From NCBI RefSeq assembly GCF_058153355.1, contig NZ_CM177019.1: 64,000 nt of DNA, one strand, 5' to 3'. A program made the position numbers and the translations under genes. Shown piece after piece: positions 15,201-55,371 of this stretch (the stretch's first letter is position 1; each line of letters opens with the position of its first letter). Under the pieces are notes generated by a model. The model worked only from the letters and a program-made list of their open reading frames with translations, was not told the DNA's origin and ran no database searches.

Positions 15201-17249
15201 GCGCTACCGGTAACACTCAACGAACAGGGCGAAGGCACGGTTACATTGCCGATTGGTGATTTTAACGGTGAATTGCGCGTCATGGCACAAGCATGGACAG
15301 CAGATGATTTCGGTAGCAACGAAAGCAAAGTGGTTGTTGCCGCACCGGTGATAGCAGAACTGAACATGCCGCGCTTTATGGCCAGCGGTGACACCTCACG
15401 TCTGACGCTGGATATCACTAATCTTACCGATAAACCGCAAAAACTGAACGTTGCTCTGACCGCCAGTGGCTTGCTTGAACTGGTTAGCGATTCACCCGCA
15501 GCCGTTGAATTAGCGCCGGGCGTGCGAACCACGCTGTTTATCCCGGTGCGAGCATTGCCGGGTTATGGTGATGGTGAAATTCAGGCCACTATCAGCGGGT
15601 TAGCGTTACCGGGTGAAACCGTTGCCGATCAGCATAAGCAGTGGAAAATGGGTGTCCGTCCGGCATTTCCGGCACAAACCGTCAATTACGGTACGGCGTT
15701 GCAGCCTGGTGAGACATGGGCGATTCCAGCTGATGGATTGCAAAACTTCTCGCCTGTTACGCTGGAAGGGCAATTGTTGTTGAGCGGCAAACCACCGTTG
15801 AATATTGCACGTTATATCAAAGAGTTAAAAGCGTATCCGTACGGTTGTCTGGAGCAAACCGCCAGCGGCCTGTTCCCGTCACTTTACACCAACGCAGCCC
15901 AACTGCAGGCGTTGGGAATCAAAGGCGACAGTGATGAGAAGCGCCGTGCGGCAGTCGATATCGGCATTTCTCGTTTACTGCAAATGCAACGTGATAACGG
16001 TGGCTTTGCGCTGTGGGATAAAAACGGTGATGAAGAGTACTGGCTGACGGCTTACGTGATGGATTTCCTGGTCCGCGCAGGTGAGCAGGGTTACAGCGTG
16101 CCGACAGAAGCCATTAACCGGGGGAATGAGCGTCTACTGCGCTATTTACAAGATCCGGGCATGATGTCGATTCCGTATGCGGATAATCTCAAAGCCAGTA
16201 AATTCGCCGTACAGTCTTACGCTGCGCTGGTGCTGGCCCGTCAGCAAAAGGCACCGCTGGGTGCGCTGCGTGAAATCTGGGAGCATCGTGCCGATGCTGC
16301 GTCTGGATTACCGCTGCTGCAACTTGGCGTTGCGCTGAAAACCATGGGCGATGCAACGCGTGGTGAAGAAGCGATTGTGCTGGCGCTGAAAACGCCGCGC
16401 AATAGTGATGAGCGGATATGGCTGGGTGATTACGGTAGTCCACTGCGCGACAACGCATTGATGCTCTCCTTGCTGGAAGAGAACAAATTGCTACCCGATG
16501 AGCAGTACCCTCTGCTGAACACACTTTCGCAGCAGGCGTTCGGTGAACGCTGGTTATCAACTCAGGAAAGTAACGCGCTGTTCCTGGCTGCCCGTACGAT
16601 TCAGGATTTACCGGGCAAATGGCAGGCGCAAACGTCTTTCTCTGCTGAGCTGCTGACAGGTGAGAAAGCGCAAACCAGCAATCTGAATAGCGATCAACTT
16701 GCCACCTTACAGGTGACCAACAGTGGCGATCAGCCGTTATGGCTGCGTGTGGATGCCAGCGGATATCCGCAATCCGCCCCTTTACCGGCGAGCAATGTGC
16801 TGCAAATCGAGCGCCATATTCTTGGCACTGACGGTAAGAGCAAATCGCTGGATTCGTTACGTAGCGGCGATCTGGTACTGGTCTGGTTGCAGGTCAAAGC
16901 CAGTAACAGCGTGCCGGATGCTTTGGTCGTTGATTTACTGCCTGCGGGCCTGGAACTGGAAAACCAGAACCTGGCTAACGGCAGCGCCAGCCTGGAGCAA
17001 AGTGGTAGCGAAGTGCAAAACCTACTCAGTCAAATGCAACAAGCGAACATTAAGCATATTGAGTTTCGTGACGATCGCTTTGTGGCGGCGGTTGCCGTTG
17101 ATGAATATCAACCAGTCACGCTGGTGTATCTGGCGCGGGCGGTAACGCCGGGAACATACAATGTTCCGCAACCAATGGTGGAATCGATGTATGTTCCCCA
17201 CTGGCGGGCGACTGGCGCGGCTGAAGATCTGTTGATTGTCAGACCGTAA
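12288..17249 (+). CDS. yfhM: alpha-2-macroglobulin family lipoprotein YfhM (ECAM)
   Basis: 1653-aa ORF with lipobox (LALAGC) and thioester motif CLEQ (GCLEQTAS); intact. Confidence 0.9.
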   Translation: MKKLRVAACMLMLALAGCDNNDNAPTAVKKDVPSEVTKAASSKNASSAKLSAPERQKLAQQSAGKALTLLDLSEVQLDGAATLVLTFSIPLDPDQDFSRVIHVVDKKSGKVDGAWELSDNLKELRLRHLEPKRDLIVTIGKEVKALNNATFSKDYEKTITTRDIQPSVGFASRGSLLPGKVIEGLPVMALNVNNVDVNFFRVKPEFLPAFISQWEYRNSLANWQSDKLLQMADLVYTGRFDLNPARNTREKLLLPLGDIKPLQQAGVYLAVMNQAGRYDYSNPATLFTLSDIGVSAHRYHNRLDIFTQSLENGAAQQGVEVSLLNEKGQTLTQATSDAQGHVQLENDKNAALLLARKDGQTTLLDLKLPALDLAEFNIAGAPGYNKQFFMFGPRDLYRPGETVILNGLLRDADGKALPDQPIKLDVIKPDGQVLRSVVSQPENGLYHFTWPLDSNAATGMWHIRANTGDNQYRMWDFHVEDFMPERMALNLTGEKTPLTPKDEVKFSVVGYYLYGAPANGNTLQGQLFLRPLREAVSALPGFEFGDIAAENLSRTLDEVQLTLDDKGRGEVSTESQWKETHSPLQVIFQGSLLESGGRPVTRRAEQAIWPADALPGIRPQFASKSVYDYRTDSTVKQPIVDEGSNAAFDIVYSDAQGVKKAVSGLQVRLIRERRDYYWNWSEDEGWQSQFDQKDLIENEQTLDLQADETGKVSFPVEWGAYRLEVKAPNEAVSSVRFWAGYSWQDNSDGSGAVRPDRVTLKLDKASYRPGDTIKLHIAAPTAGKGYAMVESSEGPLWWQEIDVPAQGLDLTIPVDKTWNRHDLYLSTLVVRPGDKSRSATPKRAVGVLHLPLGDENRRLDLALETPAKIRPNQPLTVKIKASNKNGEMPKQVNVLVSAVDSGVLNITDYVTPDPWQAFFGQKRYGADIYDIYGQVIEGQGRLAALRFGGDGDELKRGGKPPVNHVNIVAQQALPVTLNEQGEGTVTLPIGDFNGELRVMAQAWTADDFGSNESKVVVAAPVIAELNMPRFMASGDTSRLTLDITNLTDKPQKLNVALTASGLLELVSDSPAAVELAPGVRTTLFIPVRALPGYGDGEIQATISGLALPGETVADQHKQWKMGVRPAFPAQTVNYGTALQPGETWAIPADGLQNFSPVTLEGQLLLSGKPPLNIARYIKELKAYPYGCLEQTASGLFPSLYTNAAQLQALGIKGDSDEKRRAAVDIGISRLLQMQRDNGGFALWDKNGDEEYWLTAYVMDFLVRAGEQGYSVPTEAINRGNERLLRYLQDPGMMSIPYADNLKASKFAVQSYAALVLARQQKAPLGALREIWEHRADAASGLPLLQLGVALKTMGDATRGEEAIVLALKTPRNSDERIWLGDYGSPLRDNALMLSLLEENKLLPDEQYPLLNTLSQQAFGERWLSTQESNALFLAARTIQDLPGKWQAQTSFSAELLTGEKAQTSNLNSDQLATLQVTNSGDQPLWLRVDASGYPQSAPLPASNVLQIERHILGTDGKSKSLDSLRSGDLVLVWLQVKASNSVPDALVVDLLPAGLELENQNLANGSASLEQSGSEVQNLLSQMQQANIKHIEFRDDRFVAAVAVDEYQPVTLVYLARAVTPGTYNVPQPMVESMYVPHWRATGAAEDLLIVRP

Positions 17250-19551
17250 ATGCCTCGCCTGTTAACCAAACGCGGCTGCTGGATCACGCTGGCAGCTGCG
17301 CCCTTTCTCCTTTTTTTTGCCGCGTGGGGAGCAGATAAACTCTGGCCCCTGCCATTGCATGAAGTCAATCCCGCACGCGTAGTCGTGGCGCAGGATGGTA
17401 CGCCACTCTGGCGTTTCGCCGATGCTGAGGGCATCTGGCGCTATCCGGTAACCATCGAAGATGTCTCTCCGCGTTACCTTGAAGCACTGATCAATTATGA
17501 AGATCGCTGGTTCTGGAAGCATCCGGGGGTGAATCCATTCTCGGTGGCGCGCGCAGCATGGCAAGATCTCACTTCGGGACGGGTTATTTCCGGCGGCAGC
17601 ACACTCACCATGCAGGTTGCTCGTCTGCTTGATCCTCACCCCAAAACTTTTGGCGGCAAAATTCGCCAGCTCTGGCGCGCGTTTCAACTGGAATGGCACT
17701 TGTCTAAACGTGACATTCTGACCTTGTATCTTAATCGCGCTCCGTTTGGTGGTACGTTGCAGGGGATCGGTGCGGCAAGCTGGGCATATCTCGGAAAATC
17801 GCCTGCGAATTTAAGCTATTCCGAGGCGGCAATGTTAGCGGTGTTACCGCAAGCGCCCAGCCGACTGCGTCCGGATCGCTGGCCGGAACGTGCCGAGGCC
17901 GCACGTAATAAAGTGCTCAATCGGATGGCTGCGCAAGGTGTGTGGTCCCGTGAGCAGGTAAAAGAATCTAGTGAAGAGCCCATCTGGTTGGCACCCCGAC
18001 AAATGCCGCAACTGGCACCGCTGTTTTCGCGAATGATGCTCGGTAAAAGTAAAAGCGACAAAATCGTTACTACGCTGGATGCTGGTTTACAGCGTCGTCT
18101 GGAAGAACTGGCGCAAAACTGGAAAGGACGATTGCCACCGCGCAGTTCGTTGGCAATGATCGTTGTTGATCATACTGATATGAGTGTGCGCGGCTGGGTA
18201 GGATCGGGATGATTCCCGCTTTGGGCATGTCGATATGGTCAATGCGATCCGATCGCCGGGATCGGTACTCAAACCGTTTGTTTATGGTCTGGCGCTGGAT
18301 GAAGGCTTGATCCACCCTGCATCGCTGTTGCAAGACGTTCCCCGGCGCACTGGTGATTATCGACCAGGCAACTTTGACAGCGGTTTTCATGGCCCGATCA
18401 GCATGAGTGAGGCGCTGGTGCGCTCGCTGAATTTACCTGCTGTGCAGGTGCTGGAAGCCTATGGACCGAAACGGTTTGCGGCAAAGTTACGCAATGTTGG
18501 ATTGCCGTTATATTTGCCCAACGGTGCTGCACCGAATCTTTCGCTCATTCTCGGCGGCGCAGGTGCAAAACTGGAGGATATGGCTGCAGCGTATACCGCA
18601 TTTGCTCGCCACGGTAAGGCGGGTAAGTTGCGCTTACAGCCGGGGGACCCATTACTTGAGCGACCGTTAATGTCGCCGGGGGCCGCGTGGATTATCCGCC
18701 GAATTATGGCAGATGAAGCGCAGCCGCTTCCGGATGGCGCTTTGCCACGCGTCGTACCACTGGCGTGGAAAACAGGAACCAGTTATGGCTATCGCGATGC
18801 ATGGGCTATTGGCGTTAACGCTCGTTACGTAATTGGGATCTGGACTGGCAGACCGGACGGTACGCCCGTTGTCGGTCAGTTTGGCTTTGCCAGCGCCGTA
18901 CCGCTGTTGAATCAGGTCAATAATATCTTACTGTCGCGCAGTGCGAATCTGCCGGAAGACCCGCGTCCTGATTCTGTAAGCCGTGGCGTTATCTGCTGGC
19001 CGGGTGGGCAATCATTGCCAGAAGGTGACAGTAATTGCCGCCGTCGTCTTGCCACCTGGTTGCTCGAAGGTAGCCAGCCACCAACATTACTTTTACCGGA
19101 GCAGGAAGGAATAAGTGGGATTCGTTTCCCCATCTGGCTTGATGAGCAAGGTAAACGTGTTGCTGCTGATTGTCCTCAGGCTCGACAAGAAATGATTAAT
19201 GTCTGGCCATTACCACTTGAACCCTGGCTACCTGCTGCTGAACGACGAGCAGCGCGCTTACCTGGGGCATCAACAAATTGCCCGCCGTATGGTCGTGATG
19301 CTCAGGTACCTTTACAGTTGATTGGTGTGCGTAATGGCGTAATTATCAAACGTCTGCCAGGAGCTACTGATGCGTCATTACCAGTACAATTAAGCGGAGG
19401 AACAGGCGAACGCTGGTGGTTTCTTAATGGTGAACCGTTAGCTGAACGCGGGCGTAACGTGACTCTGCATTTGACAGAGAAAGGCGATTATCAATTACTG
19501 GTAATGGACGAAATGGGGCAGGTCGCGACGGTGAGATTTGTCATGCAGTAG
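17250..19551 (+). pseudogene. pbpC: penicillin-binding protein 1C (PbpC) split by a frameshift
   Basis: Two adjacent ORFs in different frames: 17250..18212 (transglycosylase GT51 domain, EDRWFWKHPGVNP) and 18235..19551 (transpeptidase, SPGSVLKP SxxK motif). The second frame read upstream gives ...DDSRFGHVDMVN back to a stop at 18199..18201, so the shift lies in 18199..18213. Confidence 0.8.
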
Positions 19552-29149: not shown

Positions 29150-31342
29150 ATGTCACAGGGGATGTGCATGCTGCGATGGAAACGCTGTATTATGCTAACA
29201 TTTATCTCTGGAGCTGCTTTTGCGGCTCCAGAGATAAATGTTGAGCATAAAGAATCGTTACCTGATTTAGGTAGTCAGGCCGCACAACAGGAAGAGCAAA
29301 CTAACAAGGGTAAATCGCTAAAAGAGCGTGGTGCCGATTACGTCATTAACTCTGCCACGCAAGGGTTTGAAAACCTGACACCCGAGGCGCTGGAGTCCCA
29401 GGCCAGAAGCTATCTGCAAAGTCAAATTACCTCTACGACACAATCTTATATTGAGGATACACTCTCCCCCTACGGTAAGGTCCGAACGAATCTTTCTCTT
29501 GGTCAGGGCGGCGATCTGGATGGCAGTTCCATCGATTATTTTGTTCCCTGGTATGATAATCAAACTACTGTTTATTTCAGCCAATTTTCTGCACAACGAA
29601 AAGAAGATCGTACGATCGGGAATATTGGGCTTGGTGTAAGACATAATTTTGATAGATGGTTATTGGGTGGAAATATATTTTATGATTATGATTTTACCCG
29701 TGGGCATCGCCGTTTAGGTTTAGGTGCCGAAGCCTGGACTGATTATTTAAAATTCTCTGGCAACTATTATCATCCGCTTTCTGACTGGAAAGACTCCGAA
29801 GATTTCGATTTTTATGAGGAGCGTCCTGCGCGCGGTTGGGATATTCGCGCCGAAGCCTGGCTACCCGCTTACCCGCAGCTTGGCGGTAAAATCGTTTTCG
29901 AACAGTATTACGGTGATGAAGTCGCGCTTTTTGGCACCGATAATCTGGAGAAAGATCCCTTCGCCGTCACGCTGGGTGTGAAATACCAGCCCGTACCGCT
30001 CATTGCCGTAGGAACGGATTTCAAAGCCGGCACTGGCGATAATACCGATCTTTCTGTTAACGCAACGCTGAACTACCAGTTTGGCGTCCCGCTCAAAGAC
30101 CAGCTTGATCCTGACAAAGTAAGCGCGGCTCACTCGCTCATGGGCAGCCGTCACGACTTTGTTGAACGTAACAACTTTATTGTTCTGGAATACAAAGAGA
30201 AAGATCCCCTCGATGTCACTTTGTGGCTGAAAGCTGATGCGACGAATGAACATCCCGAGTGCGTGATTAAAGATACGCCAGAAGCAGCCATCGGGCTGGA
30301 AAAATGTAAGTGGACCATTAACGCGCTCATTAATCATCATTACAAAATCGTTGCTGCCTCCTGGCAGGCGAAAAACAATGCTGCACGTACGCTGGTGATG
30401 CCGGTTATCAAAGAAAACACCCTTACTGAAGGGAACAACAACCACTGGAATCTGGTACTGCCTGCCTGGCAGTACAGCTCTGATAAAGCCGACCAGGAAA
30501 AACTCAATACCTGGCGGGTACGCCTGGCGCTGGAAGATGAAAAAGGCAATCGGCAGAACTCCGGCGTGGTGGAAATCACCGTTCAGCAGGATCGTAAAAT
30601 TGAGCTCATCGTTAACAACATCGCCAATGTACCGGATGAGAACAATCACAGCCACGAAGCCAGCGCGCAAGCGGATGGTGTAGATGGTGTCGTCATGGAT
30701 CTCGACGTTACCGATAGCTTTGGCGACAACACTGACCGTAACGGTAATGTCTTGCCGCAGGATAATCTCAGCCCGCAGCTGTTTGATGCCAACGATAAAA
30801 AAGTGACGCTGGCGAATAAACCCTGCACCACCGAAGTGCCGTGCGTTTTTATCGCCAAACAAGATAAAGAAAAGGGGACCGTTACGCTCTCCAGTACGTT
30901 GCCCGGCACCTTCCGCTGGAAAGCGAAAGCCGCCCCTTATGATGACAGTAACTATGTTGACGTAACGTTCCTGGGTTCTGACATCGGCGGGCTGAATGCT
31001 TTTATCTACCGCGTTGGTGCAGCTAAGCCCGTCAATCTTATCGGCAACAAAGAACCGTTGCCTCTCAATAGCCGCTATCGCTTTGTGCTGTGGCGCGACG
31101 CTAACAAAGACGGCGTGTTCCAGCTTTCTGAGAAGCTCACTGACGACGAGATGAAACAGTATGACTATCAGTGGGAATTCACGGGGAATAGCGTAAATGG
31201 CAATACCGGCGCGCAAACCAATACCACGAACGTCGATATAGAGATCCCGGCAACCAACAAGGAAGCGGCAGCAAAATTTAATGCTCAGGTAACCGATGGC
31301 GTGCAGGGATACGGTTTGCAGGTCAATTACAGCAAGAAATAG
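29150..31342 (+). CDS. sinH: intimin/invasin-family inverse autotransporter (SinH-like)
   Basis: 730-aa ORF. Residues ~150–340 match the intimin/invasin beta-barrel translocator (…ERPARGWDIRAEAWLPAYPQLGGKIVFEQYYGDEVALFG…GVKYQPVPLIAVGTDFKAGTGDNTDLSVNATLNYQFG…SRHDFVERNNFIVLEYKEKD, compare intimin …LIYEQYYGDNVALF…SRYDLVQRNNNIILEYKK). Signal peptide present; first in-frame start may be downstream of 29150. Confidence 0.8.
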   Translation: MSQGMCMLRWKRCIMLTFISGAAFAAPEINVEHKESLPDLGSQAAQQEEQTNKGKSLKERGADYVINSATQGFENLTPEALESQARSYLQSQITSTTQSYIEDTLSPYGKVRTNLSLGQGGDLDGSSIDYFVPWYDNQTTVYFSQFSAQRKEDRTIGNIGLGVRHNFDRWLLGGNIFYDYDFTRGHRRLGLGAEAWTDYLKFSGNYYHPLSDWKDSEDFDFYEERPARGWDIRAEAWLPAYPQLGGKIVFEQYYGDEVALFGTDNLEKDPFAVTLGVKYQPVPLIAVGTDFKAGTGDNTDLSVNATLNYQFGVPLKDQLDPDKVSAAHSLMGSRHDFVERNNFIVLEYKEKDPLDVTLWLKADATNEHPECVIKDTPEAAIGLEKCKWTINALINHHYKIVAASWQAKNNAARTLVMPVIKENTLTEGNNNHWNLVLPAWQYSSDKADQEKLNTWRVRLALEDEKGNRQNSGVVEITVQQDRKIELIVNNIANVPDENNHSHEASAQADGVDGVVMDLDVTDSFGDNTDRNGNVLPQDNLSPQLFDANDKKVTLANKPCTTEVPCVFIAKQDKEKGTVTLSSTLPGTFRWKAKAAPYDDSNYVDVTFLGSDIGGLNAFIYRVGAAKPVNLIGNKEPLPLNSRYRFVLWRDANKDGVFQLSEKLTDDEMKQYDYQWEFTGNSVNGNTGAQTNTTNVDIEIPATNKEAAAKFNAQVTDGVQGYGLQVNYSKK

Positions 31343-31391
31343 GGTCGGCGCCATGGCTGATCGGGCCACCGCTGAATATTAATCAAGGAGA

Positions 31392-32390
31392 GTGTTTATG
31401 AAACCTGATATGAAACGTGGCCTGACAAAAGTCGCGCTCGCGTTGATGCTGGCTGGATACTGTGCCGTACCAGCCGCTATGGCGGAAGATGCCGCCTGGG
31501 TCGCCAGTGGAGCGACCGCTGAATTCGAAGGGACTATACCCTGGCTCTATCGCGAAGGGGGGAATGCCACGATTAACTCGGAAGATGCGGATCACATTAA
31601 AGTGACGTCTGATGGTAAAGGGACCCGTCCTCCAGGTAGCGAGACGGATAAACGCCTTTACTCAGGGGATACCATCACGCTGGGTTGGGATATCGGCGAT
31701 ACCGAAGGGGATATTGATGATGGTCCCGCAGGCATTGATGCGAAAACGACGGCCACTATCAAATGGTACAGCTACAGCAATAATGCGGGTGGCGATAAAA
31801 CTGAGCTGACCGCAGCGGCAGGCAAGACGAGTTATAAACTCACTGATGACGATCGTGGGCGTTATATCGGTGTTGAAATCCAGCCCATCACCCAGACCGG
31901 TAATCCCTTCGAGGGAACGTCGCTGACTCTGCTGGATATTTCAACGGCCAGCGGTGGCGGCAGCGATACGGACAATGTCGATCCCGGCCCGGTTGTGAAC
32001 CAGAATCTGAAAGTTGCCATCTTCGAGAAAGGCACCACTACCAACCTTATCGGTGGTAACACGGCCATTGCGCTTAATAAAACATATGTGGCCAAACTGT
32101 ACTCGGATGAAAACCAGAACGATAAATACGACGCAGGTACGGATATGGACGTTACCGCTAACTATGACTTTGCATGGGTCTTTAACGGTAACAGTAAACA
32201 ACTCCGTGCTGCAGGCGGTATTGCTAATGCCAGCTTCGATAACAATGACATTGTTATCCCGCAAACTAACGAAGAAGCAAGAACCAGCCTTAACGGTAGT
32301 GACCGTAATGGTAAGAGTGGTCTTGCGATCCCAGCAAACGGCGACGGCGTTCAGGGCTATACGCTGTCAATTATTTACAAACACCACTAA
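31392..32390 (+). CDS. sinI: secreted protein paralogous to the SinH C-terminal domain (SinI-like)
   Basis: 332-aa ORF with signal peptide (KVALALMLAGYCAVPAAMA). C-terminus shares clear motifs with the SinH C-terminus: YDFAWVFNGNS / YDYQWEFTGNS, IVIPQTNEEAR / IEIPATNKEAA, DGVQGYTLSIIY / DGVQGYGLQVNY. Confidence 0.6.
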   Translation: MFMKPDMKRGLTKVALALMLAGYCAVPAAMAEDAAWVASGATAEFEGTIPWLYREGGNATINSEDADHIKVTSDGKGTRPPGSETDKRLYSGDTITLGWDIGDTEGDIDDGPAGIDAKTTATIKWYSYSNNAGGDKTELTAAAGKTSYKLTDDDRGRYIGVEIQPITQTGNPFEGTSLTLLDISTASGGGSDTDNVDPGPVVNQNLKVAIFEKGTTTNLIGGNTAIALNKTYVAKLYSDENQNDKYDAGTDMDVTANYDFAWVFNGNSKQLRAAGGIANASFDNNDIVIPQTNEEARTSLNGSDRNGKSGLAIPANGDGVQGYTLSIIYKHH

Positions 32391-32499
32391 TGCGCACGAC
32401 TGCATTCCCGTAGGGGAATGCTGTTTTCCGCCTGTTTTGCTTAGCGACGCGTTAAGCAAAACAGGTTGATGTTTTGTTTATCATGTTGGAGTTTTCTAC

Positions 32500-35400
32500 A
32501 TGTCGGTATGTCTGAAACCAGGGAAAATCATTATGCTTCTGGGCATGTTGGCAGCGTTTATGCTGTCTGACTTTGCACGAGCAGGGGTGGAATGGCAGAC
32601 ATATCCTGATTCTACAGGCGAGTTTAACGGAACCGTTCCTTTTGCCGACAGCGCCAGCGTACCCGTCTATCAGGGCAGTGTTCAGCTTAATCCTGGCGAA
32701 TCTCATGATGTCGGGTTTTCTGCTAAACCGAATGAATTTAGCGTTGACGATGACGCCGCTAACCTGATTGTTGCTAATCCTCAGGACAATGAAGGCGACC
32801 AGTTTTCCACACCACCTGCGCTGCGCTGGGAAAATCAAACACCCCCTACCGTCAGCCTGGTGTGGGCCGATGCCGCCACGCCCGATGTACCCCTTAACCC
32901 ACAACCCATTGCTAACCGTAGCTTTTGTGCTCAGGGGCTCGCCGGACGCTCGCTGGTGGCCTGGCCGCAGATTGATGCGCAGCAAACCCTCCCACTGCTC
33001 TACCTGTTGACCTCGACCGGCTATCCCTATGCGGGGACGGTGGCGCTGGTGGACCAGAAAGTGACCCTGAACATCGCGCCCGCGCAGGGCGATTTAATCT
33101 CGGTGAGCGCCAGCGGTTATAACGAAACGATCGCGGCGGCAAAAACCACCGTTGGCGACACCATCACGCTCACCGTCACCACTAAAGATTGTCAGGGCAA
33201 CGTCGCGGGTAATATTCCGTTTATTATCAAACGTAAAGATGCTGAAAATCGCCAGGGGGCAGTGAATAATAGTGCGCCAGTGGTACTGGATAGCACCGAG
33301 TTAACGACGACGGCTACCGAATACCATGGCACCTCTGATGCCAACGGCACGGCCACCATCACGGTGAGCCAACCGAACGGCCCTGGCGTCAAAACGCCAC
33401 TGGTGGTCAGCATTTCCGGCATTGCGCAAACCAGCGAAACCGCGGTGATTTTTACGGTGCTCACCAGCCCGGACGCGGCGCAGGCTACGATGTGGGGCCA
33501 TATGGCGGAAACGGTAGAAGCGCACGGTTACACCTTCAGTCGACCAAAGCTGGCGGCAGAAGTCAGCAATGAAAGCGCCACGGTCGTCGATCACAACGAA
33601 ACCTGGTCCACCTTCACCTGGAGCGGCGCAGATAACCACTGCACCGTGCTGCCCGGCATGCGCCACTTCGGCGCGCTGGCGACCGTTATCCCCACATCGG
33701 TGCAGACAGTCCTTGGCTGGCCGATGCAGGGGGATTATTACTGGTCATCGCTGGCGGGCACCACCGGGCAGCACCATGCGGCGGATGTCTCTAACCGTGG
33801 TGAAACGCAAAAGCCGGATAGCACCCCGTTTCTTGTAAGCTGCGTGGATAAACCCGCGCCTGATGTCGAGCCGAAAATCGTCCTTACGCCCGAAAACTAT
33901 GATGATACGGCACAGGCGATGAAATCGCAGGTGGGCGAAGACGCCACGATGCGTCTGACGATCACCGACAATAAAAATAACGATCAACCACTGGCGTATT
34001 ACTACTTCTCGCTGCATCTGGATGACGGCGTTAACCGCAAAAATCAAACCGATTCCGCCTGGGAAGCCCATCCGGTGCAGATTACTGGTGGTTCGAATTT
34101 GCAACAGGTTGATGCTCACACCTATGAAGGCATGACCGATGTCAACGGTCAGGCTTCGCTAACCCTGAGTCAGCCCGACGGCGCAGGCGTGAAAACCCAT
34201 ATCACGGCGAAAATGCGCAGCAATTTTACGGCTACAGATGCCAAAGACGTGATTTTTACTGTGATCACCAGCCCGGACAGCGACAAGGCGCGGATGTGGG
34301 GCCATATGCGCGGCATTGTTGTATCTGGCAGTCTGTTCAAACGCCCAGTGCTGGCGGATGAAACTGAGCATGAACTGGGATCGGTGCGGGAAAATAACGA
34401 AGACTGGGCGCTGTTCGATCAAGACACCAGTATGCAGGCTGAATGCGGCGTCGGCCATACGCCAAGTCAGAGTGGGCTGGAAAGCCTTTTTTCAGCCCAT
34501 CCCGGTAACGCGATTGGCACTGAGTATGGCTGGCCCACCGCACAACAGAACTACCTAAGCGCGGTGGAGCAAGCCACGCATTCATCGGTGAATTTGGCGA
34601 ACGGAAACGTCGACAGCTACCCCGGCTTTAAGCGAAATTACCTCTCCTGTTCGGGCAATGAGATGGTCGCGAAGGTTGAAGTGAGCACCGATCACGATGT
34701 CACCCCTGGCAGCAAAGCGCAGGCCAAAGTGGGAGACACCGTCGTGATGACCGTGCGTACGGTTAACGCGCTCAATAATACCCCCGTTCCCTTTACTGCC
34801 TTCACCATCACTAAAGGCATGGGGTATAACCGAGCGGGGCTGGTGAGCGGGTTTGATGACCCGAGCAGCGGCGCAATCTCGATGAATGGCACGCAATACG
34901 GCACATCGCAGCCGTCGATGGTTTATACGGGTACGACAGATGCACAAGGCGTGGCAACGGTCGAAATAGAGCAACCACAAGGCGTCGGGCTAAGAACGGC
35001 GCTGAGCGTAACGCCGGTAAATTCCTACCTGCCGAATACCGTTAATTACAGCGTTATTTTCACCACCCCAACCAGCCCGGACGTTATTGGCGCGCAGATG
35101 TGGGGCCATATGGATGAAACGATTACTGTTGATTCATTAACCTTTACCCGGCCTAAGCTGGCAGCAGAAATCGCCAGTCCGGATGGCACACTAACGGAAA
35201 AAAACGAAGTCTGGGCGCGCGTTAGCCAGGCCAGTACGGCCATTACCAGTAAAGGCGGTTGCGGAGCCAATATGCTGCCGCGTCGCTCACAGCTCAGTGC
35301 GCTCTATGACGCTAATAACGGCAATGCGGTGCAAACCACACACGGCTGGCCGACGCAGCGTCAGCCCTACTGGAGCAGTTCCCCCGCGGATGTAACGCCG

Positions 35401-38400
35401 CACTATTACACCATTGCCCTGGATAACGGCGCACAGGCTATCGGCGGCGATACGCCGGTTTACGTCAGTTGCCTGACGACGGCGAACAAACCTGCCAGCA
35501 GCATTACGCTGGATGTGGTTGATAACGCACAGTGGGCTGCCGGAAATAACGCGGCGAAGCTGAAAAAAGGCGAAACGCTACGGGTTAAGGTAACGGTAAA
35601 AGATGCGCAGGGTAATCCGCTCACGGATATGCCATTTAAACTGAGTCGCGGAGACGGTTATACCCGCACGGGCGAAAAACATATTGCCGGTAGTGGCGAT
35701 GCGCTGGTGGCACCGGTGGTGATTAACAGTGGGCTGGCGGATGAAACGACGTTGAACGACACCGCGGGATTTTATACTGCCATGACCGGTAGCGACGGCA
35801 GCAAAATCCTCAATATTACCCGCCCGGATACTCACGGCACCAAAACGGCGCTGACGGCGACGTTGTATTCCGATGCAACAAAAAAAGACAGCCTGGATAC
35901 GATCTTTACTGTGGTCACCAGCCCGGATAGTAGCAAAGCGAAAATGTGGGGGCATATGCCGGAAACGGTGACGGCTGCGGACGGTACGGTATTTAAACGC
36001 CCGCTGTTGTTGAAGGAACTGGCCTATCAGACTGGGCGAACATCGACGTCTGAAGACAATGAAAACTGGGCGTTGTTTAACATTAATTATGCGAGTTCTT
36101 CCACGACGTATAGTGGCTGTGGAACCAACTATATTCCGACTCAAGCCGGTCTGACGTCACTGTTTGCTAATAATGCGGGCAACACCATGAAAACCGTGCA
36201 GGGCTGGCCGGTGGCAACACGCTATTTGTCCAACACGTCCGACAACGGCAGCATGGAGCAGCGTAACTACAAGGCGGTAGATCTCAGCAATGGCACGAGT
36301 GCGGCAGTGTCATCAACGGCGCTGCAACTGCTGACCTGCCAGACCACGCCGGTAACCACGGTGGGCCAAATTCTGCTGGAAGCGGCAGATCCGGCGACGC
36401 TGGATACCACCTATAACGTGGTAAAAGCGAAAAAAGGCGAAGAATCCGTGGTGCGCGTCACCACCAAAGATACGCAAGGCAACCTGGTGGGCAATACGGC
36501 ATTTATCCTGACGCGTGCCAACAGCGTGAGTCGGGCTAACGCATCAGCAACCGCGAGCGTGGGCGCGCTGACGGTGACGGATGCTTGGGGAAATACGCGA
36601 AATAATTTCCAGTCGACGAGTGAAACGATTTACGGCGTGACTGGTGCAGACGGGTCAACGACATTTACCCTGAAACAGGATAACAGTACCGGGTTAAGAA
36701 CCGATCTCACGGCAAAACTGGATACGTCCAGCAGCGTCAAGGCGACGCTACCGGTGGTCTTTACTGTCGTGACCAGCCCGGATTCGCCAAAAGCGAATTT
36801 TTGGGGACATATGGCCGAAACGGTGATGGCCTCCGACGGTACAATCTATAAACGACCACTGTTGTTGAAAGAGCTGAGTAACACCAGTGGTCGAAATTCT
36901 ACGGCTGAAAACGGTGAAGATTGGGCAAGATTCACCTGGACTCAGTCGGCTGACACCAGCATGAATGGGTGTGGTACAGATTATATGCCGACGCTGGATG
37001 GACTGAAGTCTTTGTATGACGCCAATAGCGGTAATGTGATGAGTACGGTGCAGGGATGGCCGGTAAAAACGACCTATCTCACCAATACCCCGAGTGATAC
37101 GCAAACAGGGAGCCGTTACTACAATGTGGTGCAACTGAATACTGGTGCAGTCTCACAAATCTCGACGAACACAGTCGTGCTACAAACCTGCCGCACAACG
37201 CCGTTGACGGCTGCTAGCCAGATTACGCTGGAGGCCTCAGACCCCGCGCAATTTGTCAGCATTGACAGTACGCTTAGCGCGATCAAAGTGCAGAAAGGCG
37301 ATAGCGTGTCGATCCGCATTTCGACTAAAGATGCACAGGGGAATTTAGTCGGCAATACGCCGTTTGCCCTGAAACACGCTAACCCGGTCAATCGCCAAAA
37401 TGTGGCGTCAACATCGCAGAAAGTGTCGGTCACGACTGCGTCGGGTACGACGGTGGATACCACTGCATCGACCATTCTGTATGGCGTGACCGGGCCAGAC
37501 GGAACCACCACGATGACACTCCGACAGGATGCGTCTACTGGACTCAAAACCGACTTTTATGCTCTGTTGAACGATACCGGCGTGTCGTCGAACACCTTGC
37601 CAGTGATCTTCACCGTCGTCACCAGCCCGGATACACCGCTGGCGGCCAACTGGGGGCATATGGCAGAAACCTTTACCAGCAGCAAGGGAGTCACCTTCAA
37701 ACGGCCTTTCCTCAAAGCTGAACTTTCTGGTGGTACGGCGGTAACGACCAATAATGAAGTCTGGTCGCGCCTGACAGCAACGGAGAAAACGGATGCCAGC
37801 AAGGCTGGGTGTGATGAGAGTTATCAACCGCTGATGACTGACATGCAGGGGTTGTATGCGGATTACCCTAACAACCAGTTGGGCACGGTGCTCGGCTTGC
37901 CGACTTCCGCCGGGTATATGTGGGCCTACGACATGATGACGGTTTCTGGCAGCAGCTGGAGCAACCAGGCATATTCGCTCGTTAATGGTCAGACAGTTCA
38001 GGCATCGTCCAGTTATACGGCGGTAGTGATGTGCCTGGTGGAACCGCATACCGTTCCGGCGATGATAGAGATCACTTCAACAGCACAGGATGCGGCAAAA
38101 ACGGTCAGCAATGGTGGTCGACCGAGCGCCGTAGCGAAGAAAGGTGAGACGATTCCGCTGACGGTGACCGTACGTGATAGCACCGGGAATCCGGTACCCT
38201 ACGCCGACTTTACCCTCACGCGTGGAACGACGCTGGATCGCTCGAAAGCAACCGTTAACTCGAGTGCGGACGATCTTACCGTGAAGTCATTGATACCCGC
38301 GAACAGTGACGCTGGGCTGACGGCAAATGGGGCAAAAGTGCTCAGAACAACGGGCAGTGATGGCACAGCCACCTTTGAAGTGAGCCAGAATGCCACGACA

Positions 38401-40590
38401 GGACTGGCGACCCCCATAACCGTCACGCTGGCGCGTGATGTAACCAAAACCGCCACGCTGGATGTTATCTACACGGTGATAACCAGCCCGGACTCACCGA
38501 GCGCGAAATTCTGGGGGCACATGCCGGACACCTTTACCAGTTCGGCAGGCGTCACCTTCAGACGACCGCTGCTGAAAGCCGAAGCGACTTCAGGGTCATC
38601 GATTAGCACTAACGGCAATGGTGAAGTGTGGTCGTATATGAGCAACGTTCAAAATTTAACATCGACAGATTGTCCGCTGGAGAATCAACCGCGCAGTAAT
38701 GAATTGTTGGATTTGTATAATGATCATCCCAACGGCGCGATAATGACTGACCTGGGGCTGCCGATATATGCAGGCAAGTGGTGGGCTTATGATATGGTCA
38801 TGCCGGATTTATATACGTGGCAGTATCAGACGGTCAGCCTGAGCGCAGGAGATATCGCGAAGAGCTCGGCAAGCAACGCGCTGATGCTTTGCCTGACGAA
38901 GCCGCATCCGGCAGGCGTCAGCGTAATGTTGACGTCATCCGCAATGGATAACGCCAGAACCCTCAGTAATGGCGGGCGACCCAGCGCGTCAGTGAAAAAA
39001 GGTAACCCACTGCCAATTGTGGTGACGGTCAAAGATCGTGATGGCAACCCGCTGGCGGGAGAGGCCGTGACGCTCAGGCGTGGTTCAGCGATGAGTCGTT
39101 CAGGAGCAGGAGTGGGCACGCCGGCAAATGCAATGACGTTGACAGAATTGACACCTGTGTCGGCGGAGTTTTCTCTGGCCGCACACGATACGCAATGGCA
39201 AGGTTTCACCGGCAGTGATGGTACGGCCACTTTCAATGTTGAACAGCCTGAGACCATCGGCCTGGCCATTTCGTTCACCGCTATACTGGCGCGAGATGTA
39301 GCAACTACCAGCGTCCTTGATGCGATCTTTACCGTCGTTACCAGCCCGGATTCCGCAATGGCGACCTACTGGGGCCATATGCCGGATACGGTAACGGCGG
39401 AAAACGGCGTGGTCTTTGAACGGCCTAAATTGTTGAAAGAGCTGCCGTCGAGCGCCGGAGTCAGTCAGGTGACGGATAACAATGAAGTGTGGCCGTTGTT
39501 TAAGGCAACGCAAAGGGAAGATAGCAGCCTCAGTCCTTGTGAAGCGGCACGTCGGCCATTGAGCGATGATTTATTATCGCTCTACGCGCGCTATCCGGGG
39601 AACACGCTGACGACTCAAATCGGCTGGTCTACGAAGTATGCATGGTGGGCACTGGATAACAAGCAGGGGAATGCCCTGGTTGTCAGTCTGAATAATGGTT
39701 TTGAGTCGTCGACGGCGAGTACGGGGTATCAGGGATGTCTGGTCAATCCCCGCGCGACCGTCTCCAGCGTCACGCTGACATCGACGGCGCTGGATGCCAC
39801 TACGCAGGCAGCGAAGGTAAAAAAAGGTGAAGCCGTGCCCCTCGTTGTTACCGTAAAAGACAACGCCGGGAAGCCGGTACCGAATGTCGCTTTCACCTTA
39901 AAACGTGGTGATGCCATGCCACGTAACAGCGGGGCGACGTTGTACGGTGATGTTGCGGCGATGGATGATATGACGGTACAACCTGCCAGCGGGACGGTGG
40001 TAACGCTGGCTGACAGTGGGAATACGGTCGACGGAGTGACTGGGGCGGACGGTACGGCAAGTTTTACCGTTCGTCAGGATAATACGCCAGGATATAAAAC
40101 GCCGTTGACGGTGACGCTGACGGATAACGCCACAATAACGGCGATGCTGGATACGATTTTCACCGTCGTTACCAGTCCAAATGTACCCACAGCCCATTTT
40201 TGGGGACATATGTCGGATACCACTGTGGTAAACGGTAAAACGCTACATCGTCCACAGTTGGAATCAGAACTGCCATCGGCAGCCATCATGGTGGCAACAC
40301 CGAACGTCAATAATGAGACGTGGGCACTGGCGCATACTGTTGACTCGCAAAAATGGGATATTTCGCAGCAGTGCGGCCTCCTTGATTTTGCACCGAATTA
40401 TGCGGATTTAGAGGCTCTGCACACTAACTTCAGTACTCTCGGATGGCCGTCAATGCCTAATACCCCCTATCTATCTAAAGACAGAGAGCGGTCAGGTAAG
40501 TATTACTGCGGTATGATTGAAGAGACAGGTTCTCAATCTTGCAGTATTGAGCCTACCAGCACGCCGGGATTTGCTACTTGTGTCAGGTAA
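32500..40590 (+). CDS. ratA: giant repetitive surface protein, RatA-like (2696 aa)
   Basis: Single uninterrupted ORF with N-terminal signal-like hydrophobic segment ([17 protein letters not shown]) and nine tandem modules each carrying the motif [IV]FTV[VI]TSPD-x6-WGHM…RP.L…E.W…GCG…GWP…C. Confidence 0.75.
33000..40300 (+). repeat. nine tandem ~840-bp coding modules inside ratA
   Basis: TSPD-WGHM motif DNA (accagcccgga...tggggncatatg) recurs at about 33465, 34267, 35065, 35915, 36773, 37623, 38483, 39343 and 40173, period ~800–860 nt; the copies are diverged, not identical. Confidence 0.7.
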
Positions 40591-40634: not shown

Positions 40635-42041
<1,407 letters not shown>

Positions 42042-46762: not shown

Positions 46763-46954
46763 CTAACGTTGTACCGGTGATTCGACGGAGAGTGTGGATT
46801 GCTGAGCTTCTTTTTTGCTCTGATGGTGCTGCCATGCACCGACGGACGAGTAGATAAAACGGCCAAAGAAGAAGATAAAGCTGATGAGCAGTACGATACG
46901 GGTCATGCGACTGTTAAATCGGTGTCGTTTTCGCATACTGGTTGCCTGACTCAC
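46763..46954 (-). CDS. yfgG: small membrane protein YfgG
   Basis: 63-aa ORF with one hydrophobic helix (IVLLISFIFFFGRFIY); expected position between yfgH and pdeF. Confidence 0.65.
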   Translation of the reverse strand: MSQATSMRKRHRFNSRMTRIVLLISFIFFFGRFIYSSVGAWQHHQSKKEAQQSTLSVESPVQR

Positions 46955-47164
46955 AAAAGGTTCCTTGAAGTATGTCCCACGCCGTGGACGGTACTTACAT
47001 TAAGGCACAACAGGACAAAATGGTCAATTCTTCGTTATGTAAAAAAGCGTCAGTGGATACATATTTTAATGTTATGGAAGTTAATTTAATTATTTACAAT
47101 GATGATGTAATAATGATGAATTAACATGATAAACGTAATAATTCATTAATCAGGGGTATTTTGT

Positions 47165-47178
47165 TTGATATATATCAA
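47165..47178. promoter_or_regulatory. perfect FNR/CRP-class palindrome TTGAT-atat-ATCAA upstream of pdeF
   Basis: Exact TTGATatatATCAA ~130 bp upstream of the pdeF start, within an AT-rich divergent yfgG/pdeF regulatory region. Confidence 0.55.
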
Positions 47179-47305
47179 TTGGAACTTTCATATGACACTT
47201 AGAATCAATGCTCTCTATAGTGATGAATAATCATCATTCGAAGTCAGGTGGGATGCCTGTCTGAATACACCTCCTTCAGGATGTGGGGGATTCTGCTGAG
47301 CATCT

Positions 47306-49549
47306 ATGAAACTGAATGCAACCTATATAAAAATACGTGATAAATGGTGGGGGCTTCCGCTGTTCCTGCCTTCTTTAATCTTGCCCATTTTCGCCCATAT
47401 TAATACTTTCGCGCATATTTCTTCCGGTGAGGTTTTTCTCTTTTACCTGCCTTTGGCACTGATGATCAGCATGATGATGTTTTTCAGCTGGGCGGCATTG
47501 CCAGGGATCGCCTTAGGGATTTTTGTCCGCAAATATTCAGAGCTGGGTTTTTACGAAACGCTCTCATTAACAGCTAATTTTATTATCATTATCATTCTCT
47601 GTTGGGGCGGTTACAGGGTCTTTACTCCCCGGCGTAACAACGTTTCACATGGTGATACCCGTTTAATTTCCCAGCGTATATTCTGGCAGATTGTGTTTCC
47701 TGCAACGCTGTTTCTGATACTTTTCCAGTTTGCCGCATTTGTAGGGTTACTGGCGAGTAGAGAAAATCTGGTCGGCGTCATGCCTTTTAACCTCGGGACC
47801 TTAATCAATTATCAGGCCTTACTGGTGGGCAATCTGATTGGTGTTCCGCTGTGCTACTTCATCATTCGGGTGGTGCGAAATCCGTTTTATTTACGCAGCT
47901 ATTATTCGCAATTAAAACAGCAAGTTGATGTGAAAGTCACCAAAAAAGAGTTCGCGCTCTGGCTACTGGCATTAGGTGCGTTGTTGTTGCTGTTATGCAT
48001 GCCGTTAAATGAAAAAAGCACGATTTTCAGCACCAATTATACCTTGTCATTATTGCTACCCCTGATGATGTGGGGAGCCATGCGCTATGGTTATAAGTTG
48101 ATTTCGCTGCTCTGGGCGGTCGTGCTGATGATCAGCATCCACAGCTATCAAAATTACATTCCCATTTATCCTGGCTATACCACGCAACTGACCATAACCT
48201 CCTCCAGTTATCTGGTATTCTCTTTTATTGTCAATTATATGGCTGTACTGGCAACCCGTCAGCGAGCGGTAGTCAGACGCATTCAGCGGCTTGCGTATGT
48301 GGACCCGGTGGTTCATCTGCCAAATGTTCGCGCCCTGAATCGCGCGTTGCGTGATGCCCCCTGGTCTGCGCTTTGTTATTTACGCATCCCCGGCATGGAA
48401 ATGCTGGTTAAGAACTATGGCATCATGCTACGGATTCAATACAAGCAAAAACTTTCTCACTGGCTGTCACCATTGCTGGAACCGGGTGAAGATGTTTATC
48501 AGCTTTCGGGTAACGATCTCGCGCTGCGACTGAATACAGAATCGCACCAGGAGCGCATTACCGCACTGGATAGCCATCTCAAGCAATTTCGTTTCTTTTG
48601 GGATGGAATGCCGATGCAACCGCAGATTGGCGTCAGTTACTGCTATGTACGCTCGCCGGTGAATCATATCTACCTGCTGCTGGGAGAGCTAAATACGGTT
48701 GCTGAACTCTCCATCGTGACCAACGCTCCAGAAAATATGCAGCGCCGCGGGGCTATGTATTTACAACGTGAATTGAAAGATAAAGTCGCGATGATGAATC
48801 GGCTACAGCAGGCATTGGAGCATAACCATTTTTTCCTGATGGCCCAGCCGATTACCGGTATGCGTGGTGATGTCTACCATGAAATTCTTCTGCGCATGAA
48901 AGGTGATAATGATGAACTGATCAGCCCCGACAGCTTCTTGCCGGTCGCGCACGAATTTGGTTTATCGTCGAGTATCGACATGTGGGTCATTGAGCATACG
49001 CTGCAATTTATGGCTGAAAACAGAGCGAAGATGCCCGCTCACCGTTTTGCGATTAATCTGTCGCCAACCTCGGTATGTCAGGCTCGTTTTCCCGTTGAAG
49101 TCAGTCAGCTGCTGGCTAAATATCAAATTGAAGCGTGGCAACTTATTTTTGAAGTCACCGAAAGTAATGCTCTGACCAATGTTAAGCAGGCGCAGATCAC
49201 CTTGCAGCATCTTCAGGAATTAGGCTGCCAGATTGCGATTGATGATTTCGGAACCGGCTACGCCAGCTATGCACGGCTTAAAAATGTGAATGCCGATCTG
49301 CTTAAAATTGACGGCAGTTTTATCCGCAATATTGTGTCAAATAGTCTGGATTATCAGATAGTGGCGTCGATTTGCCACCTGGCGCGAATGAAGAAAATGC
49401 TGGTAGTGGCAGAGTACGTTGAAAACGAAGAGATCCGCGAGGCGGTGCTCTCTTTGGGGATCGATTATATGCAGGGTTATCTTATTGGTAAGCCGCAACC
49501 GTTAATTGATACGCTGAATGAAATCGAACCCATTCGCGAAAGTGCCTGA
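47306..49549 (+). CDS. pdeF: c-di-GMP phosphodiesterase PdeF (YfgF): MASE1, degenerate GGDEF, EAL
   Basis: 747-aa ORF with multiple N-terminal TM helices and a C-terminal EAL-domain region. Confidence 0.9.
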   Translation: MKLNATYIKIRDKWWGLPLFLPSLILPIFAHINTFAHISSGEVFLFYLPLALMISMMMFFSWAALPGIALGIFVRKYSELGFYETLSLTANFIIIIILCWGGYRVFTPRRNNVSHGDTRLISQRIFWQIVFPATLFLILFQFAAFVGLLASRENLVGVMPFNLGTLINYQALLVGNLIGVPLCYFIIRVVRNPFYLRSYYSQLKQQVDVKVTKKEFALWLLALGALLLLLCMPLNEKSTIFSTNYTLSLLLPLMMWGAMRYGYKLISLLWAVVLMISIHSYQNYIPIYPGYTTQLTITSSSYLVFSFIVNYMAVLATRQRAVVRRIQRLAYVDPVVHLPNVRALNRALRDAPWSALCYLRIPGMEMLVKNYGIMLRIQYKQKLSHWLSPLLEPGEDVYQLSGNDLALRLNTESHQERITALDSHLKQFRFFWDGMPMQPQIGVSYCYVRSPVNHIYLLLGELNTVAELSIVTNAPENMQRRGAMYLQRELKDKVAMMNRLQQALEHNHFFLMAQPITGMRGDVYHEILLRMKGDNDELISPDSFLPVAHEFGLSSSIDMWVIEHTLQFMAENRAKMPAHRFAINLSPTSVCQARFPVEVSQLLAKYQIEAWQLIFEVTESNALTNVKQAQITLQHLQELGCQIAIDDFGTGYASYARLKNVNADLLKIDGSFIRNIVSNSLDYQIVASICHLARMKKMLVVAEYVENEEIREAVLSLGIDYMQGYLIGKPQPLIDTLNEIEPIRESA

Positions 49550-55116: not shown

Positions 55117-55371
55117 ACGTTTGCGAGACTGCTTTACACAACCTTTTTGCACTTCATTTTCCCAAGCGCGCGGCGAAAGAATAGCTGCACCGTGGCAAAG
55201 GAGAGTTTTTGGATGGAATAATATTCTTTCATAACCACATGAATATAAAGTAACTTTATCTAAAACCGTTATCATTTTGACTAAAGTCAACGAAAATAAT
55301 ATTGCCGCCTTGAAGAAAGGAGGTATAATCCGTCGATTTTTTTTGTGGCTGCCCCTCAAAGGAGAAAGAGT

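Follow-up and report, generated by a model that had tools for sequence, protein, structure and literature searches.

The FNR box of the pdeF (yfgF) promoter in Escherichia coli and its conservation across enterobacterial genera

The divergent intergenic region between yfgG and pdeF (yfgF) contains a palindrome that resembles the binding site of the oxygen-responsive regulator FNR, which raises the question of whether this site is what makes the expression of a c-di-GMP phosphodiesterase respond to anaerobiosis. The DNA analyzed here is a single stretch of 64,000 nucleotides, hereafter the window. An initial annotation of the window, made from the letters, had called the palindrome a perfect FNR box and had tied it to the anaerobic expression of pdeF. 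We conclude with high confidence that pdeF is transcribed from a class II FNR-activated sigma-70 promoter whose operator is this palindrome. The feature is the already published yfgF/pdeF class II FNR promoter, and the first reading is thus correct but not new; beyond the anaerobic expression of the gene, the binding site itself was already characterized. What follows sets out the anatomy of the promoter, its conservation, the published evidence for binding and output, and a conserved leader between the promoter and the pdeF start codon.

The FNR box and the pdeF promoter

The window derives from E. coli and runs opposite to the orientation of K-12, in whose annotation the gene is pdeF (b2503), with yfgG divergent upstream and ppx convergent downstream. 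At the locus, 378 of 381 aligned bases are identical to MG1655, and both the box and the -10 hexamer are unchanged. The three single-nucleotide differences, at positions 46983, 47156, and 47183, lie outside functional elements, the last of them falling in the spacer between the box and the -10 hexamer. The palindrome TTGATATATATCAA is composed of TTGAT (47165-47169), ATAT (47170-47173), and ATCAA (47174-47178), and it matches the FNR consensus TTGAT-N4-ATCAA at 10 of 10 specified positions, with letters and half-sites exactly as first annotated. Its distance to pdeF, given there as about 130 bp, was measured as 134.5 bp from the box centre to the ATG at 47306, which opens the sole long plus-strand open reading frame (ORF) downstream of the box. 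The AT-rich setting with short repeats was also borne out. The G+C content is 34.8% across the intergenic region (46955-47305), 24.3% in the 173 bp 5' of the start site, and 51.8% in the window, and the repeats comprise AATGATGATGTAATAATGATGAATT at 47098-47122, with two AATGATGA-type direct repeats. The coordinates of all features are collected in Table 1.

Table 1. Features of the yfgG-pdeF locus, in window coordinates
Feature	Position	Strand	Remarks
yfgG	46763..46954	-	63 aa, DUF2633; divergent from pdeF
AT-rich repeats	47098..47148	.	AATGATGA direct repeats and 13-nt inverted repeat 47111-47123 / 47136-47148
FNR box TTGATATATATCAA	47165..47178	.	perfect inverted repeat, centre 47171.5; identical in K-12 MG1655
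-35 position AATTGG	47177..47182	+	0/6 match to TTGACA; 17-nt spacer from -10 assumed
-10 hexamer TAGAAT	47200..47205	+	begins 21 nt after box; same -10 named in PMC3718329
Predicted transcription start	47213	+	from geometry and the published -41.5; 8 nt after hexamer
pdeF 5' leader	47213..47305	+	about 93 nt, from predicted start to ATG
5' stem-loop of pdeF leader	47219-47238	+	folds
Conserved leader block CAGGTGGGATGCCTG	47245-47259	+	hairpin CAGG/CCTG, GGA 47251-47253 in loop
Second leader hairpin CCTCC/GGGGG	47270-47289	+	GGA 47279-47281 in loop
Conserved block GCATCT	47300-47305	+	adjoins pdeF ATG
pdeF (yfgF) CDS	47306..49549	+	747 aa, MASE1 and EAL by Pfam; regulated gene

The box overlaps the -35 position, and the promoter is left without a usable -35 element. 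Class II promoters that depend on an activator typically lack a -35, and -41.5 is the class II position for activators of the CRP/FNR family. A transcription start at 47213 places the box centre at -41.5, and a start at 47212 would place it at -40.5; we infer the former. The sequence features of a class II FNR promoter, namely the consensus repeat, the 21-nt spacing, the absent -35, and conserved half-sites, were all found here. The promoter with TAGAAT was not called by a consensus promoter scan of the sequence. That scan instead proposed a promoter with ATGACA-18-TATAGT (47192-47221), which we rejected as the main promoter, as its -10 is not conserved outside Escherichia and as the FNR box would then be centred near -56.5, a position typical of neither promoter class.

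These features match what has been published. The E. coli yfgF promoter is described as class II and FNR-dependent, with an FNR box TTGAT--ATCAA at -41.5 and a -10 element TAGAAT (Lacey, Partridge & Green 2010, Microbiology 156:2873, as relayed by Lacey et al. 2013, PMC3718329). The K-12 promoter is the same locus as that in the window, with the same FNR box, 21-nt spacer length, -10 TAGAAT, and leader, and differs by the three substitutions given above. Among other class II FNR promoters, yfiD has the near-identical box TTGATTTAAATCAA (Myers 2013 Table S6, PMC3688515), and with promoters of this kind pdeF shares the consensus repeat, its position relative to the -10, and the lack of a -35.

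The proposed course of activation is as follows. In the absence of oxygen, FNR keeps its [4Fe-4S] cluster, dimerizes, and binds TTGAT-N4-ATCAA; sited where the -35 would be, it would recruit and activate RNA polymerase through contacts that we predict from the position of the box. Polymerase would use the -10 TAGAAT, and transcription from near 47213 would yield the 93-nt leader and then pdeF. Oxygen destroys the FNR cluster and so turns the pdeF promoter off.

The AT-rich repeats lie 65-115 bp upstream of the predicted pdeF transcription start, and the arms of their 13-nt inverted repeat read TAATGATGAATTA and TAATAATTCATTA. By alignment, they are kept solely within Escherichia, and a related copy of the repeat forms the 5' stem-loop of the pdeF leader (47217-47237). 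A Fur box in the AATGATGA repeats was considered and rejected: the best match to GATAATGATAATCATTATC was 12/19, a score equalled in 62% of shuffles of the region.

Elsewhere in the window, the strain differs from K-12 in, for instance, an island and a broken pbpC. The island (29150-40590) comprises about 11.7 kb between der and xseA that is not in K-12, and encodes a 730-aa inverse autotransporter (IAT_beta), a 332-aa ORF unmatched in Pfam, and a 2696-aa protein that contains nine BIg21 / InvE_AD repeats; a similar island may be SinH-SinI-RatA (CS54-type), which occurs in Salmonella and pathogenic E. coli. pbpC (17250-19551) is broken into two ORFs of 320 and 438 aa by an 11-bp deletion relative to K-12 (TTGATCTCAAC is absent after about 18207). 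Because this deletion shifts the frame, pbpC is probably a pseudogene in this strain.

Conservation of the promoter across enterobacterial genera

To follow the promoter beyond the window, pdeF orthologues were collected by protein similarity from one genome per species, which gave 14 loci where the orthologue was full-length and the DNA upstream of it long enough. These loci come from Escherichia species, Enterobacter asburiae, Phytobacter, Kluyvera, and one further enterobacterium, and the PdeF proteins from outside Escherichia are 57-63% identical to the query. An FNR box with zero or one mismatch is present at all 14 loci, centred 124-144 bp before the ATG. Within the alignment of these loci, TTGA, TCAA, and TA-AAT are invariant and the interval from the box to the -10 is gap-free, with DNA upstream of the box unalignable between genera.

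A larger set was obtained from metagenomes, from which 74 loci were retrieved using a DNA pattern taken from the leader and not from the promoter; 73 of them lie upstream of pdeF-like ORFs. Retrieval by the leader pattern does not bias the box, and many of the metagenome loci are closely related to each other. One metagenome locus (L131), which had matched the pattern by chance, was excluded. Together with Escherichia, Enterobacter, Phytobacter, and Kluyvera, the metagenomes gave 71 distinct upstream regions. A box with at most one mismatch and with its TTGA/TCAA half-sites kept was found in 70 of these 71 regions and was perfect in 15, the common variants being TTGAC and GTCAA. A TAnnAT hexamer lies exactly 21 nt 3' of the box in every one of the 71. 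The N4 spacer drifts (ATAT, TTAA, TTAG, TTAT, CTCA, GTGC, GTAT, and others), and the upstream flank varies too. Conserved half-sites at a fixed distance from the -10 form the pattern that a functional class II operator would be expected to leave in an alignment.

The published yfgF promoter of Salmonella Enteritidis (PMC3718329) keeps the FNR box at -41.5 and the -10, as in the other genera here, and differs in the letters of both elements, with a box TTGAC--ATCAA and a -10 TACAAT where the window has TTGAT--ATCAA and TAGAAT. Of 5426 complete E. coli genomes, 5403 carry the 60-bp core promoter at ≥95% identity. One E. coli strain, L73 (NZ_CP033378.1; L154, 1226-2008), carries an IS1 element between the FNR box and the pdeF -10, flanked by a 9-bp target duplication, GGTACTTTC. 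This insertion should represent a natural variant in which pdeF is uncoupled from FNR.

New in the present work is that at least four enterobacterial genera share one fixed architecture from the box to the -10. The link between FNR and PdeF is therefore ancestral and no peculiarity of K-12.

FNR occupancy and the target of the box

Binding in vivo and dependence on FNR are documented in the literature. The RegulonDB curation paper lists FNR as an activator of yfgF under anaerobiosis, and the PdeF protein is undetectable in aerobic cultures and induced anaerobically (Sarenko et al. 2017). Three ChIP-seq peak finders, as well as ChIP-chip, give an FNR peak at yfgF/yfgG that was not in an earlier FNR ChIP-chip study (Myers 2013 Table S5, PMC3688515). 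The predicted site under the ChIP-seq peak is TTGATATATATCAA, with a PatSer score of 16.08 and no overlapping enrichment of Fis, H-NS, or IHF (Myers 2013 Table S6, PMC3688515). The initial annotation had pointed to FNR ChIP-seq data as one check of the site, and the peak is there with TTGATATATATCAA beneath it. Its larger claim, that the FNR box underlies the anaerobic expression of pdeF, is upheld by the published FNR-dependent yfgF promoter, the ChIP peak, the promoter geometry, and the conservation across genera.

The other check that it named, dependence of expression on fnr, gave a divided answer. Published dependence, as relayed by papers that cite the original work, speaks for it; yfgF mRNA that did not change in glucose minimal medium speaks against it. 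In anaerobic glucose minimal medium, the yfgF/yfgG peak was classed as lacking an FNR-dependent change in expression (Myers 2013 Table S9, PMC3688515). Since the site is bound without fnr-dependent yfgF mRNA in this medium, occupancy alone does not set output under all conditions. Loss of both H-NS and StpA raised the height of the FNR peak from 0.35 to 1.68 (Myers 2013 Table S7, PMC3688515), and anaerobic induction of yfgF was seen only in this hns stpA double mutant, with a +O2/-O2 ratio of 0.23 (Myers 2013 Table S11, PMC3688515). In the proposed mechanism, H-NS and StpA would accordingly damp pdeF output, and the conserved leader may do so as well. Unlike strong class II promoters, pdeF combines occupancy with no fnr-dependent mRNA in glucose minimal medium, and its output is unmasked by loss of H-NS/StpA. 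FNR binding appears to be necessary, but not sufficient, for pdeF output.

The box stands between two divergent genes, and it could be supposed that it mainly serves yfgG, or both directions. We regard this as unlikely. Of the two divergent genes, Myers et al. estimate yfgF to be the target, with one known start site credited to Lacey 2010 (Myers 2013 Table S9, PMC3688515), and yfgG is not among their fnr-dependent operons (Table S8). In favor of yfgG is its roughly 2.2-fold higher level under anaerobic conditions in wild-type K-12 (Table S12 gives 0.45, and values >1 for aerobic genes such as acnB), in an experiment where yfgF was not called differentially expressed. The yfgG start codon, however, is 217.5 bp away from the box centre, the promoter scan shows no promoter-like site on the yfgG strand, and the constraint seen across genera is on the distance to the pdeF -10. 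Probably, then, yfgG is not the target of the FNR box.

The palindrome had also been said to fit the spacing of the CRP family, which would open the reading that it is a CRP or dual CRP/FNR site and that pdeF answers to carbon source. CRP and FNR sites share a TGA-N6-TCA core and its spacing, and any FNR box fits CRP-family spacing; the remark is true, if trivially so. The position that distinguishes CRP sites from FNR sites is the G of GTGA. The box does contain the TGA-N6-TCA core, but its half-sites read TTTGA / TCAAT, with T in place of the required G, and the surrounding 22-mer matches the CRP consensus AAATGTGATCTAGATCACATTT at only 12 of 22 positions. The signature of a CRP-dependent promoter, TGTGA-N6-TCACA with the discriminating G in each half-site, is accordingly not found. 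Orthologues conserve TTGA/TCAA and never GTGA/TCAC, and no CRP regulation is given for yfgF, whose entry reads 'Other known regulators: Unknown' (Myers 2013 Table S9). A role for CRP at this site is, in our judgment, very improbable.

That the palindrome is a chance product of AT-rich intergenic DNA, which favors TTGAT/ATCAA-like words and which would give the box no regulatory role, can be dismissed almost entirely: perfect matches to TTGATNNNNATCAA number 2 in the 64-kb window against 0.06 expected (dinucleotide-preserving shuffles, n=100, of which 0/100 attained 2), the expectation for the 351-bp intergenic region is about 3 × 10⁻⁴, the half-sites and the fixed 21-nt distance to the -10 are kept across genera whose PdeF proteins share only 55-64% identity, and FNR occupancy by ChIP is published, so that conservation and ChIP together refute this reading even though the window's other perfect match looks accidental.

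That other match, TTGATGAATATCAA at 17098-17111, lies within the coding region of yfhM and precedes the pbpC start by 152 bp. K-12 reads TTGATGAATACCAA at this place, and the match is made perfect by a single strain-specific base. It does not appear in the tables of Myers 2013, and most likely it arose by chance. Two further 14-mers in the window lie under FNR ChIP-seq peaks in Myers et al. 2013, namely TTGATCTCGCTCAC (42012-42025) in the guaB/xseA intergenic region and TTGACTTTAGTCAA (55277-55290) at upp/purM, and both belong to the class without an fnr-dependent change in expression (Myers 2013, PMC3688515). For TTGATATATATCAA, the reading as the operator of the FNR-activated pdeF promoter stands.

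The pdeF leader

Between the promoter and the ATG, the pdeF leader is conserved at least as strongly as the operator. Among the 14 loci gathered by protein similarity, two segments do not vary across four genera: CAGGT-K-GGATGCCTG (47245-47259) and GCATCTATG (47300-47308). The invariant blocks CAGGTKGGATGCCTG and GCATCTATG are in part each other's complement. At the metagenome loci both blocks were imposed by the search pattern, and their conservation there carries no weight. The leader corresponds to K-12 2628939-2629031, and of 5426 E. coli genomes, 5407 carry it once. We found no description of the pdeF leader in the literature. Rfam covariance models gave no match to 47213-47308 even at an E-value of 10, and no family matched the intergenic region; three hits with E-values >1 were set aside as noise. 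No purine-rich Shine-Dalgarno-like run precedes the pdeF ATG.

The folds predicted for the leader offer two alternatives. When an alignment of 70 leader sequences was submitted to RNAalifold, only the invariant CAGGU/GCCUG hairpin was returned, with no covariation, as its sequence does not vary. The segment GGAUGC (47251-47256) can instead pair with GCAUCU (47300-47305), which abuts the AUG, and the single-sequence folds of most species prefer this GGAUGC/GCAUCU helix. At the second hairpin, a stem presenting GGA in its loop is possible in all 53 distinct leaders, through 21 different stems, with a mean energy of -5.3 kcal/mol vs -0.09 kcal/mol for shuffles. In a structure-blind alignment, 81% of the cells of the second hairpin are paired, and the whole structure reaches 26-51% in slid controls; 2 of its 5 pairs change on both sides, so the covariation is modest. 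Taken in full, the leader folds with no unusual stability (z = -0.32).

Two other roles for parts of the leader were considered and rejected. The conserved block contains a mini-ORF, ATGCCTGTCTGA (47253-47264), which reads ATG CCT GTC TGA and encodes Met-Pro-Val-stop. Its first three codons are conserved, but the position of the stop, the length, and the frame differ between genera, which does not fit a leader peptide, and the region is probably conserved at the level of RNA. The second hairpin was likewise weighed as a terminator; in Phytobacter and Enterobacter a run of U residues comes after the hairpin, but E. coli and Kluyvera have none there, and the terminator reading was dropped as a general explanation.

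It is possible, though we would stop short of calling it probable, that the pdeF leader is an undescribed, genus-spanning post-transcriptional switch, either as a candidate target of CsrA or as a structure that hides translation initiation. In such a switch, the long-range GGAUGC/GCAUCU helix would hide the pdeF initiation region, and an RNA-binding protein such as CsrA, or temperature, would select between the local GGA hairpin and the long-range helix. Two GGA motifs sit in predicted hairpin loops 28 nt apart, within the range of 10-63 nt that we asked for in a CsrA-type leader. For the repressing mode of CsrA we looked for a GGA within 15 nt of the ATG and found none; the invariant sequence there is GCATCTATG.

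The cultures used for CsrA CLIP-seq in E. coli were reportedly aerobic, and pdeF would not have been expressed in them, so that a missing yfgF entry would say little. Across 13 supplements of the E. coli CsrA CLIP-seq paper, there is no entry for yfgF, pdeF, or b2503. Among c-di-GMP genes, dgcT/ycdT and cdgI are given as repressed by CsrA (PMC5635695, from Jonas et al. 2008). Like the CsrA-controlled leaders of such genes, the pdeF leader has two GGA motifs in loops and precedes a gene for a c-di-GMP enzyme; it differs from them in that no GGA overlaps a Shine-Dalgarno sequence, and it is at most a candidate member of that group.

For E. coli, the link between FNR and pdeF dates from a 2010 publication, with genome-wide confirmation in 2013, and our analysis adds nothing new to it there. 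If the leader is a switch, it would explain FNR occupancy without PdeF output, as well as the reported dependence of expression on growth phase and temperature, and it offers a concrete candidate for the second layer of control that is implied by published data in which the promoter is bound and its output unchanged. The site itself links oxygen sensing to c-di-GMP turnover via an FNR-activated phosphodiesterase, PdeF, which favors motility and changes both the cell surface and the response to oxidative stress as enterobacteria turn anaerobic.
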